The translations under genes were made by a program, and so were the position numbers. The notes under the pieces were generated by a model, which worked only from the letters and a program-made list of their open reading frames with translations, did no database searches and had not been told where the DNA came from. Of a stretch of 64,000 nt of DNA, positions 29,838-32,017 are shown in pieces; positions within the stretch are counted from its first letter, which is position 1; every line of letters begins with the position of its first letter. The DNA is taken from positions 64,001-128,000 of IMG/VR virus record IMGVR_UViG_3300044675_001501; one strand, 5' to 3'. This DNA comes from a virus (taxonomy: Duplodnaviria > Heunggongvirae > Uroviricota > Caudoviricetes).

Positions 29838-30388
29838 CTTTGCTTTAACATCAATATGTTTTTGTGTTCAATTGTTGCTTTACCATGTCCATTGCCGTAA
29901 ACATACATCAGCGTGAACACATCAGAATATTTACTTGCTTTTTCTGCCCACCAACTTAACGACTTCAGTGTAACATGAGCATTTCTACCGTCTGGTAAAA
30001 TAGAACTAGCAGGAACATTGCATATACCAAGATATACAAACTTGTTAGCCTTTGAATATATCTCAGCGAGAACCGCATCTACATCTTCTTCTTCAATGTG
30101 CTCAAGAACATCAGTACAAATTACTGCGTCGAATTTTCCATCTGGGAGTTTAGAATACTGCTCAACTGCTGGGTCATATAAAGCAGGTAGTATTCCTAGG
30201 AAGTGCGTTTCGTGAATCTTCTCTTTGAAGTATTGAATACCTTTACCGCAACCATAATCAAGTATAGATTTACAATCAAGTTCAACTAAGAACTGTTGGA
30301 TAAAGTCTTTGTGGATTCTAGTTGAAGAGCCAGCATATAGACTTTCATCTTTATGCATTTCTTTATATTGATCAACTAAGTTAGACAT
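29834..30388 (-). CDS. Class I SAM-dependent methyltransferase
   Basis: ILDYGCGKG..FDAVICTDVLEHI; start trimmed to MSNLVDQY because the track extension overlaps the tmRNA. Confidence 0.85.
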   Translation of the reverse strand: MSNLVDQYKEMHKDESLYAGSSTRIHKDFIQQFLVELDCKSILDYGCGKGIQYFKEKIHETHFLGILPALYDPAVEQYSKLPDGKFDAVICTDVLEHIEEEDVDAVLAEIYSKANKFVYLGICNVPASSILPDGRNAHVTLKSLSWWAEKASKYSDVFTLMYVYGNGHGKATIEHKNILMLKQR

Positions 30389-30399
30389 AATGCTCCAAA

Positions 30400-30725
30400 A
30401 TAAAATGCCGACTGATTGGGTGATAAGGACAGTCGGCGAAACCTCATCTTGCTTTAAGCAGCAAGAGCGTAAACTTCTTCGTTTGCGTTTACTTTTATTT
30501 GCTTGATTTACGGTCATCGCCTACCGTGTTGCCGTCTCTACTATCTCACGCTGTCGAAACCTAGTCACCCCCATCAGAAGTGTCCTGCTGTTCACAGGTC
30601 GGGAATTCCAATCCTCAGAGTCTTGTTAAACTCTTACATATCACCCTAAACAACACTTCTGGTGGAGGTGGAGGGAATCGAACCCTCGTCCAACATGCCT
30701 TCGTTTTGAAGGGATTACAACAATT
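30400..30725 (-). ncRNA. ssrA: tmRNA, circularly permuted (two-piece) gene
   Basis: The acceptor piece (GAGGG-TTCGATT-CCCTC-CACCTCC-A-CCA, 3' end 30660) precedes the coding piece (starts GGGGGTGAC..TTCGAC at 30572); G3.U70 and A73 present; tag ANEEVYALAA* at 30486-30454. Confidence 0.9.
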
Positions 30726-30842
30726 CTAAAAATCTGAATTCTTTTTATCTTCTTCGAAATTGCTCCAGTCATATGTTACCAGTTTATACACCCAGTAAGA
30801 ATGCAGAACAATTAACAGTAGAAAAAGAATTAGATTACTCAT
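30726..30842 (-). CDS. Small membrane protein (38 aa)
   Basis: MSNLILFLLLIVLHSYWVYKL..; ATG abuts the ahpD stop. Confidence 0.5.
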   Translation of the reverse strand: MSNLILFLLLIVLHSYWVYKLVTYDWSNFEEDKKNSDF

Positions 30843-31358
30843 TTAACTATTTAGCACCTTGGCGACACTATTCATTACTGCGGCAATGCGACCAATGTCA
30901 CGAAGTTGTTCAACAGTATAACCTTCTTTCTTCAAAGTTTCATAATGCGCCTTGACACAAAAATGACACTTACCAACAATAGAAGCTGCAAGACTATACG
31001 CTTCAAACCTATCTTTAGTTGTACCACCATGTGAAGCGATAGCATTCATACGCAACTGTGCTGGTAGTCCTTTTAGATTTTCATCCTCAGCCATTTCAAT
31101 ATATGGATACCATACATTGTTTTGCGCCATAATCGCAGCAGCAGTAAGAGCTGACGTAAACTCTGCGCCAGTATTATGCATATCAGTTTGGATGAAAGAA
31201 ACAAGTTTACCGTTTCCAGTCATCATAGCAGCTGCTAGAGCACAACCCATAGCAACATCACCAGAAAGTGAACTTCTAGTAATGACTGCATCGAGATTAA
31301 GTTTTGTATCTTTTGCATAGTCTGGCAATGCCTCCTTAATTTGTTCTACCCAACTCAT
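30843..31358 (-). CDS. ahpD: Alkyl hydroperoxide reductase D
   Basis: LPDYAKDTKLNL..LAASIVGKCHFCVKAH (CxxC). Confidence 0.9.
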   Translation of the reverse strand: MSWVEQIKEALPDYAKDTKLNLDAVITRSSLSGDVAMGCALAAAMMTGNGKLVSFIQTDMHNTGAEFTSALTAAAIMAQNNVWYPYIEMAEDENLKGLPAQLRMNAIASHGGTTKDRFEAYSLAASIVGKCHFCVKAHYETLKKEGYTVEQLRDIGRIAAVMNSVAKVLNS

Positions 31359-31891
31359 AGCGTATCACCACCAACGGTACGGTTACATGCGCAAAGTTCG
31401 CCTGTCTGTAACGCATCTAGAACACGGAGTGTTTCCTCTGGTGAACGACCAACATTTAAGTTGTTAACAGTAACGTGCTGAATGACATTATCTGGATCAA
31501 CGATGAATGTAGCACGTAATGCTGCACCTGCTGGCGCATAGAAAACGCCAAGTTGATCGATCAACGACTTGTCCCACTCACGACTGGTGTCTGCGAATTG
31601 AATATGCTTGATCTTTGATAGATCTTCATGATGTTTCTGCCAAGCAAGTTTACAGAATTCGTTATCAGTGCTACCAGTTAGCAGAACTGCATCGCGATCA
31701 GCAAAGTCTTGGAAGAGTTTGTCATATGCTACGATTTCAGTAGGACATACGAATGTGAAGTCTTTAGGATAGTAAACAATTACTTTCCACTTACCTTCAA
31801 AAGATTTCTCAGTAATGTCGAAGAACTTATCGCTTCCTGGGTTAATCCCAGTTACGACGAACGACTCAATTTTATCACCTACGGTTTTCAT
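31355..31891 (-). CDS. ahpC: Peroxiredoxin AhpC
   Basis: YYPKDFTFVCPTEI..ALRATFIVDP..GELC. Confidence 0.95.
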   Translation of the reverse strand: MKTVGDKIESFVVTGINPGSDKFFDITEKSFEGKWKVIVYYPKDFTFVCPTEIVAYDKLFQDFADRDAVLLTGSTDNEFCKLAWQKHHEDLSKIKHIQFADTSREWDKSLIDQLGVFYAPAGAALRATFIVDPDNVIQHVTVNNLNVGRSPEETLRVLDALQTGELCACNRTVGGDTL

Positions 31892-32017
31892 GGTTTCTCC
31901 TTAGTCAAAAACAAATGGTGGTCAACTTCGACCACCGCATAAAATACTTATACATTAATACTATAAATGATAGGAGAAATTCCTATATTATTTTTTAATG
32001 AGGGTTATTAGTATAAC

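Follow-up and report, generated by a model that had tools for sequence, protein, structure and literature searches.

The window (a 64,000-nucleotide stretch comprising bases 64001–128000 of a virus record that is 169,497 bp long and has a completeness rating of 100%) carries on its minus strand, at 30722–30397, a circularly permuted tmRNA gene that is, with high probability, an intact, phage-encoded two-piece tmRNA of the betaproteobacterial type, through which a lytic T4-like myovirus of lakes, relying on host SmpB, would rescue ribosomes during infection. Gene identity, the intact identity elements and tag, covariation among relatives, conserved synteny and the lack of a phage SmpB support this reading directly. 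All parts of the gene described below lie on the minus strand.

The preliminary description had placed an acceptor piece, with its CCA end at 30660, 5′ of a coding piece starting at 30572, and this reversed order can be read directly from the minus strand. It had also proposed examining the gene with ARAGORN and against alignments of two-piece tmRNAs. ARAGORN calls a tmRNA*, its notation for a permuted gene, at 30363–30752. The Rfam beta_tmRNA model (RF01850) matches over its full length (model positions 1–331) with 156.9 bits against a cut-off of 84 (E = 2e-48) and beats the alpha and cyano models in clan competition, and tmRNA_permuted (RF04321), with a cut-off of 47, gives 150.5 bits (E = 8e-30); these matches are far above chance. 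The standard model (RF00023) returns only two sub-threshold halves (33.1 and 31 bits) in swapped order, as expected for a permuted gene, which provides an independent sign of the permutation.

The acceptor piece extends from about 30722, where the RF04321 match begins, to 30660, and its make-up is also supported by the sequence, by cofolding and by relatives. Described earlier as only about 65 nt long, it measures about 63 nt, which is normal for the beta-type model rather than unusually short. It contains the 5′ strands of the P2 helices and a local hairpin (CCUUC/GAAGG), followed by a T arm visible in both sequence and cofold (GAGGG, 30687–30683; loop UUCGAUU; CCCUC, 30675–30671), the 3′ acceptor strand CACCUCC (30670–30664), the discriminator A73 (30663) and an encoded CCA (30662–30660). 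The coding piece (30572–30397), which is supported by the Rfam matches, sequence, cofold and relatives, starts with the 5′ acceptor strand GGGGGUG (30572–30566, G1 being 30572). The resulting 7-bp acceptor stem, evident in the sequence, the Rfam alignments and the cofold, contains G3.U70, which together with A73 provides the alanine identity noted previously.

Between CCA and G1 lies a spacer of exactly 87 nt (30659–30573), presumably removed on maturation. As described, its ends are complementary: GAAGUGU (30659–30653) pairs with ACACUUC (30583–30577), and the stem can be written as GAAGUGU(U)/(G)ACACUUC. A precursor fold likewise shows the spacer shut by this stem. Between the spacer closing stem and the acceptor stem, which the paired ends had been said to extend, sit ACCA and UGAU, which pair only partly; UGAU forms a 4-nt leader between the closing stem and G1.

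Downstream of its acceptor strand, the coding piece contains a D-loop analogue, the P2a partner CAGCGUG (30553–30547) and a stem before the tag (ACGGU, 30527–30523; ACCGU, 30514–30510). The tag frame (GCA AAC GAA GAA GUU UAC GCU CUU GCU GCU UAA, 30486–30454) encodes ANEEVYALAA*, the peptide given in the preliminary description and also by ARAGORN. It opens with the alanine resume codon GCA, has no start codon and ends in ALAA plus a stop that is contained in a hairpin. A further hairpin reported to follow the tag is present at 30437–30407; it is a beta-type 3′ hairpin with an 8-bp stem (GCCGACUG, 30437–30430; CAGUCGGC, 30414–30407) and a 15-nt loop (UCCUUAUCACCCAAU), directly followed by the U-tract AUUUUAUUUU (30406–30397). 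It corresponds to the first 3′ hairpin of RF01850, and the loop motif CCUU..AC..AA is conserved. When both presumed mature pieces were cofolded, the minimum-energy structure recovered the acceptor stem, T arm and P2. As read from the gene, the tRNA-Ala-like domain with its alanine identity elements and the proteolysis-type tag are both intact.

To examine selection, the helices of the window gene were mapped onto a MAFFT alignment of 27 distinct phage tmRNA genes. Among these relatives, the acceptor stem (P1), which is invariant as regards compensatory double changes, is 98% paired. The T arm is 100% paired with compensatory double changes at 1 pair, P2a is 99% paired with such changes at 3 pairs, and the stem before the tag is 87% paired, also with changes at 3 pairs. 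The spacer closing stem is 96% paired, with double changes at 7/9 pairs, and the 3′ hairpin 95%, with changes at 7/8 pairs. As a control, sliding the partner columns by 1–2 positions gave pairing of 14–64% (56–81% for the T arm). Hairpins in the spacer interior are not conserved (41% paired in the 27 relatives), whereas pairing over the first ten positions of 33 unique spacers reaches 9.45 of 10, compared with 6.4 when the arms were swapped between sequences. The spacer has a strongly covarying closing stem, the rest being free to vary.

Comparison with the nearest relative (L171), in which the tmRNA is about 96% identical and neighboring proteins are 96–100% identical, gives a similar picture. 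The two genes differ at 6 of 229 mature positions and, within the 87-nt spacer, at 5; differences in the 5′ flank are far more numerous. In the acceptor stem, G5:C68 is replaced by A5:U68, a compensatory change that spans both pieces. The L171 tag, ANDEVYALAA, differs from that of the window by one replacement and one synonymous change, and other relatives have similar tags, such as ANDAQFALAA. The pairings of the tmRNA are under selection within phages, since compensatory changes of this kind indicate purifying selection there.

Could the gene be passenger host DNA without a function for the phage, either the remnant of an integration event at ssrA or the product of a chimeric assembly? tmRNA genes are often prophage integration sites and fragments of them occur in temperate phages (PMC9004378; PMC11915505). 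However, the gene in the window is complete rather than a 3′ fragment, has undergone compensatory change and purifying selection within phages, lies between phage genes at a site shared by cultured phages and numerous independent assemblies, and belongs to a T4-like phage in whose complete record no tyrosine integrase was found. We therefore regard passenger DNA as scarcely credible.

Several features define the carrier. Its baseplate and tail proteins match T4-type PHROGs, and its closest cultured phages are the Pelagibacter phages Mosig and HTVC008M and the Methylophilales phage Melnitz (Kyanoviridae), with about 40% identity in the baseplate wedge protein. Metagenomes of lake water and other freshwater, from 22 studies, contain the phage DNA. 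No GenBank phage was matched by Megablast with 12 kb surrounding the tmRNA, and the matches of a distant search with the tmRNA gene, to Pseudomonas and Xanthomonas phages, were confined to the T-arm region. Neither SmpB nor a second or standard tmRNA was found in the complete phage record; since the phage lacks SmpB, host SmpB would be needed for the tmRNA to act. The window also contains 26 tRNA genes, which with the tmRNA show the extent of the translation apparatus brought by the phage.

Along the minus strand, PhoH and a PD-(D/E)XK nuclease come first, followed by a small ORF and then by the genes for an AhpC/TSA peroxiredoxin and a CMD (AhpD-like) protein; next are a 38-codon peptide gene, the tmRNA and, last, a SAM-methyltransferase-like gene. 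The succession PhoH, PD-(D/E)XK nuclease, tmRNA is seen again in dozens of viral contigs, as well as in the GenBank records of Melnitz and HTVC008M. The AhpC/TSA and CMD genes, located between the PD-(D/E)XK nuclease and the tmRNA (30843–31891, minus strand), form a pair limited to one subclade (L171–L175, L177 and L178) and the other related loci lack them; in HTVC008M a peroxiredoxin lies slightly further along the corresponding region.

The preliminary description had judged a phage-borne permuted tmRNA to be unusual, while allowing that interest would fall if such genes proved common in related phages. They are common, as Melnitz, Mosig, HTVC008M and the loci of our census attest. A survey of 18,146 phage genomes yielded 133 unique tmRNAs, 53 of them two-piece by ARAGORN, and marine or aquatic phages account for 50 of these 53 (Buchholz et al., 2022; PMC9004378). 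The same authors found permuted tmRNAs in 17 of 47 Melnitz-like contigs and called them “common, but not defining.” RF04321 is described in a paper on a tmRNA database, where the phage tmRNAs listed number 79 (PMC11915505). In our searches, RF04321 matched Melnitz, Mosig, HTVC008M and two uncultured relatives with complete genomes of 162 kb, and an IMG/VR scan with the acceptor string gave at least 120 loci, of which at least 67 have an ARAGORN-permuted tmRNA.

We also carried out a census anchored on the PD-(D/E)XK protein, an anchor free of bias from the tmRNA itself, in which a tmRNA was sought within 4 kb at the 60 loci with enough downstream sequence. A permuted tmRNA is present at 21 of these loci (20 plus 1 further locus detected by Rfam), in agreement with the published 17 of 47, and a standard tmRNA at 0/60. 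As about two thirds of related loci have no tmRNA within 4 kb, the gene is dispensable in this phage group. The gene in the window is a further member of a documented kind, and neither rarity nor an independent origin is supported. With it, the published two-piece tmRNAs of aquatic T4-like phages gain a freshwater, beta-type example. In the GenBank record of Melnitz the tmRNA is annotated as SsrA; in HTVC008M the permuted tmRNA is unannotated, with no feature under the RF04321 match (NC_020484.1, 145161–145370). Annotation pipelines should look for two-piece tmRNAs in phages.

How might the gene be transcribed? We found no promoter-like site directly before the tmRNA, where the upstream region is the end of the 38-codon peptide gene. 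Sigma-70-like sites are no more frequent than in shuffled sequence, and there is no T4 late-promoter motif near the tmRNA. Several relatives carry a TTGACA-17-TATAAT promoter, and the beta-type consensus also has a sigma-70 promoter, whereas the window gene has none. Since no promoter precedes the tmRNA and the peptide gene ends 3 nt away, a longer transcript probably ends with the tmRNA. The 3′ hairpin and U-tract probably act as a transcription terminator as well; a simple terminator scan misses this hairpin, since its loop exceeds 8 nt. A separate strong, terminator-like hairpin (GGTGGTC..GACCACC plus a T-run) lies just upstream of the ahpC-like gene (31917–31936, minus strand), with a promoter-like site just before it.

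None of the listed datasets containing the 1.4-kb stretch is recorded as RNA, and the RNA runs retrieved with the tmRNA gene alone contain small shares only. Assembled contigs from four metatranscriptome runs cover the conserved T-arm/acceptor part and the 5′ coding part, although they may derive from other organisms. In one metatranscriptome run, contigs span the spacer with 0–1 mismatches; they could represent either precursor or contaminating DNA, and contigs give no RNA ends. Illumina adapter letters adjoin positions 30658–30662 in metatranscriptome contigs.

The gene immediately upstream bears on the nature of the transcript. This 38-codon gene (30726–30842, minus strand), which is not part of the tmRNA, encodes a single-helix membrane peptide with the motif LVTYDWS (P0001). 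Its start codon adjoins the stop codon of CMD (TAAATG), and only 3 nt separate its end from the acceptor piece; it is very probably on the same transcript as the tmRNA. Between the window and L177, the peptide gene has 6 synonymous and 2 non-synonymous codon differences. An overlapping 43-codon frame that runs across the acceptor piece (30772–30641) was considered and rejected as a gene, its start being unconserved (ACG in L171).

Homologs of the peptide occupy two different positions. They lie upstream of the tmRNA in L171 (2292–2408), L177 (5812–5928) and L178, and, as 41-amino-acid proteins with the LVTYDWS motif, inside the tmRNA spacer in L105, L085, L109 and the group L120/L073/L029/L022. 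About 10 of 33 unique spacers from relatives contain a small frame for a hydrophobic peptide. Such frames start after the 5′ arm of the closing stem and stop at the UGA of the UGAU leader that precedes G1. Spacers of other relatives hold unrelated small hydrophobic frames. The spacer in the window has no frame beyond AUG-UAA, and this AUG-UAA is not kept in L171. By its reading frames, then, the spacer slot in the window is empty, and the gene that fills the slot in sister phages adjoins the tmRNA instead.

It is possible, although we put this forward only tentatively, that the tmRNA gene and the LVTYDWS peptide gene form a linked unit on one transcript. If so, the tmRNA precursor would double as, or end, a messenger RNA, and the spacer would be an exchangeable slot, with genes able to move between it and the 5′ flank. 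We also considered pairing between the spacer and the 3′ hairpin, as the spacer segment GGGUGAUA (30653–30646) is a perfect 8-nt complement of UAUCACCC in the hairpin loop (30425–30418, both minus strand). L171 retains this complementarity, but L002 and L105 lack it despite sharing the loop type; it was rejected as a real pairing and is probably due to chance.

Taking the established behavior of two-piece tmRNAs as precedent, we infer transcription, processing, charging, tagging and a benefit to the phage as follows. One precursor would be transcribed, and it probably also includes the ahpC-like, CMD and small-peptide genes lying upstream, since no promoter separates them from the tmRNA. Permuted tmRNA genes are processed by tRNA enzymes (PMC11915505); the spacer closing stem would offer the precursor to the tRNA-processing enzymes of the host. 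Cleavage by RNase P at G 30572, with trimming of the 3′ end as far as the CCA at 30660, would free the 87-nt spacer, which would be discarded. An acceptor piece of about 63 nt and a coding piece of about 170 nt would then be held together by the acceptor stem and P2 helices. Host AlaRS would charge this RNA through G3.U70 and A73, and host SmpB and EF-Tu would bring it to stalled ribosomes. Translation would restart at GCA, append ANEEVYALAA and stop, releasing the ribosome and marking the tagged product for ClpXP-type proteolysis. The likely benefit is that ribosomes would stay available while the phage shuts down its host and degrades host nucleic acids.

Might the tmRNA mainly manipulate the host instead, by competing for SmpB or by tagging host proteins so that their amino acids are recycled into phage proteins? 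Recycling was raised as an idea for Melnitz by Buchholz et al. (PMC9004378), and mycobacteriophage DS6A has a tmRNA-like RNA, devoid of a tag, that inhibits the host tmRNA in E. coli (PMC11915505). With no SmpB of its own, the phage would have to draw on that of the host. We nonetheless consider manipulation unlikely to be the main role: unlike the DS6A form, the window gene has an intact, canonical and conserved tag frame, and no feature of the RNA distinguishes host from phage nascent chains. A fully functional tmRNA that rescues ribosomes covers all of the conserved features with fewer assumptions.

Known two-piece tmRNAs provide the context for these proposals. In the accounts cited here, that of Caulobacter (Keiler, Shapiro and Williams, 2000, cited in PMC9004378 and PMC11915505) is the sole kind for which processing into two RNAs and tagging are described as shown experimentally. 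The window gene would follow the same logic, in that a single precursor would have its CCA-to-G1 segment excised to give two base-paired RNAs. The Caulobacter RNA differs in being alpha type, encoded on a bacterial chromosome and built with a different periphery.

The cultured relatives Melnitz, Mosig and HTVC008M share more with the window phage. All are T4-like aquatic myoviruses with a permuted tmRNA just downstream of PhoH and the PD-(D/E)XK nuclease, the tmRNA occurs in only part of the group (17/47 published contigs; 21/60 loci here), and there is no phage SmpB. They differ in that they are marine, whereas the window phage comes from freshwater lakes, and they are distant from it, as the baseplate wedge protein identity of about 40% indicates. 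Melnitz also has a glutamine riboswitch right after its tmRNA (L124, 52.8 bits); no such riboswitch was found in the window at the gathering threshold or at E values up to 1. As for type, the tmRNAs of these three phages score as alpha (RF01849), whereas the window gene and its nearest uncultured relatives, at 100–175 bits, all score as beta.

The window gene agrees with the beta-type model (RF01850) in part order, P2 scheme, pre-tag stem and 3′ hairpin loop, and in having a tag of the ANDE type with ALAA at its end. There are also differences. The gene is viral, its spacer is 87 nt rather than the approximately 30 nt of the model consensus, the built-in sigma-70 promoter of the model is unmatched, and the acceptor piece has the CCUUC/GAAGG hairpin, which is specific to the subtype. 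In addition, the last (terminator) hairpin of the model aligns poorly and overlaps the start of the next gene, the U-tract following the first hairpin instead.

Does the permuted layout belong to a known two-piece lineage, or did it arise independently in the phage lineage from a standard tmRNA, as the preliminary description had suggested it might? That the gene is in a phage, and that the exact 40-nt P2/T-arm/acceptor string of its subtype occurs in 0 of 185,579 bacterial species genomes, could be taken to favor independent permutation. However, the gene fits the betaproteobacterial model end to end with a high score, down to the 3′ hairpin and loop motif of that lineage, which places it within a known permuted lineage, described by Sharkady and Williams (2004; as cited in PMC9004378). 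Its break point is identical to that of known two-piece genes, and there are bacterial genomes with genes of the same type and similar tags. An independent permutation is accordingly very unlikely, and we retain membership of the betaproteobacterial two-piece lineage.

The suggestion that the gene might point to the host fared little better. Alpha-type tmRNAs, namely those of Melnitz, Mosig, HTVC008M and one census locus (L207), and beta-type tmRNAs are found at the same PhoH/PD-(D/E)XK locus, so that the tmRNA type alone is a weak host marker. The Melnitz tmRNA is itself alpha type while that of its host is beta type (PMC9004378), and no sampled bacterium is close to the window gene. The presence of both types suggests that one type of tmRNA has been replaced by the other at a fixed position in these phages; a further possibility is that such replacement matched the machinery of the host.

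Among 401 sampled genomes from the order of Oxalobacteraceae, the best bacterial matches have 75–81% identity over about 105–130 nt, the top match being 81% over 106 nt. The best-matching genes are of the same (beta) type, with the tags ANDENFALAA and ANDESYALAA. The genomes that carry them, of about 2 Mb, lack hexulose-phosphate synthase and methanol dehydrogenase, and since these methylotrophy markers are absent, the genomes are not Methylophilaceae-like. A search with a general permuted pattern found only six Oxalobacteraceae genomes, with atypical tags. We also observed beta-type permuted tmRNAs (89–112 bits) in Duganella and Herbaspirillum (L129–L138), whose tags end in VGT or YGT rather than LAA, for example ANESQFLAVGT. 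Each of these genomes has a weak second tmRNA-like match elsewhere, and the tmRNA with the odd tag may be an accessory or mobile-element tmRNA.
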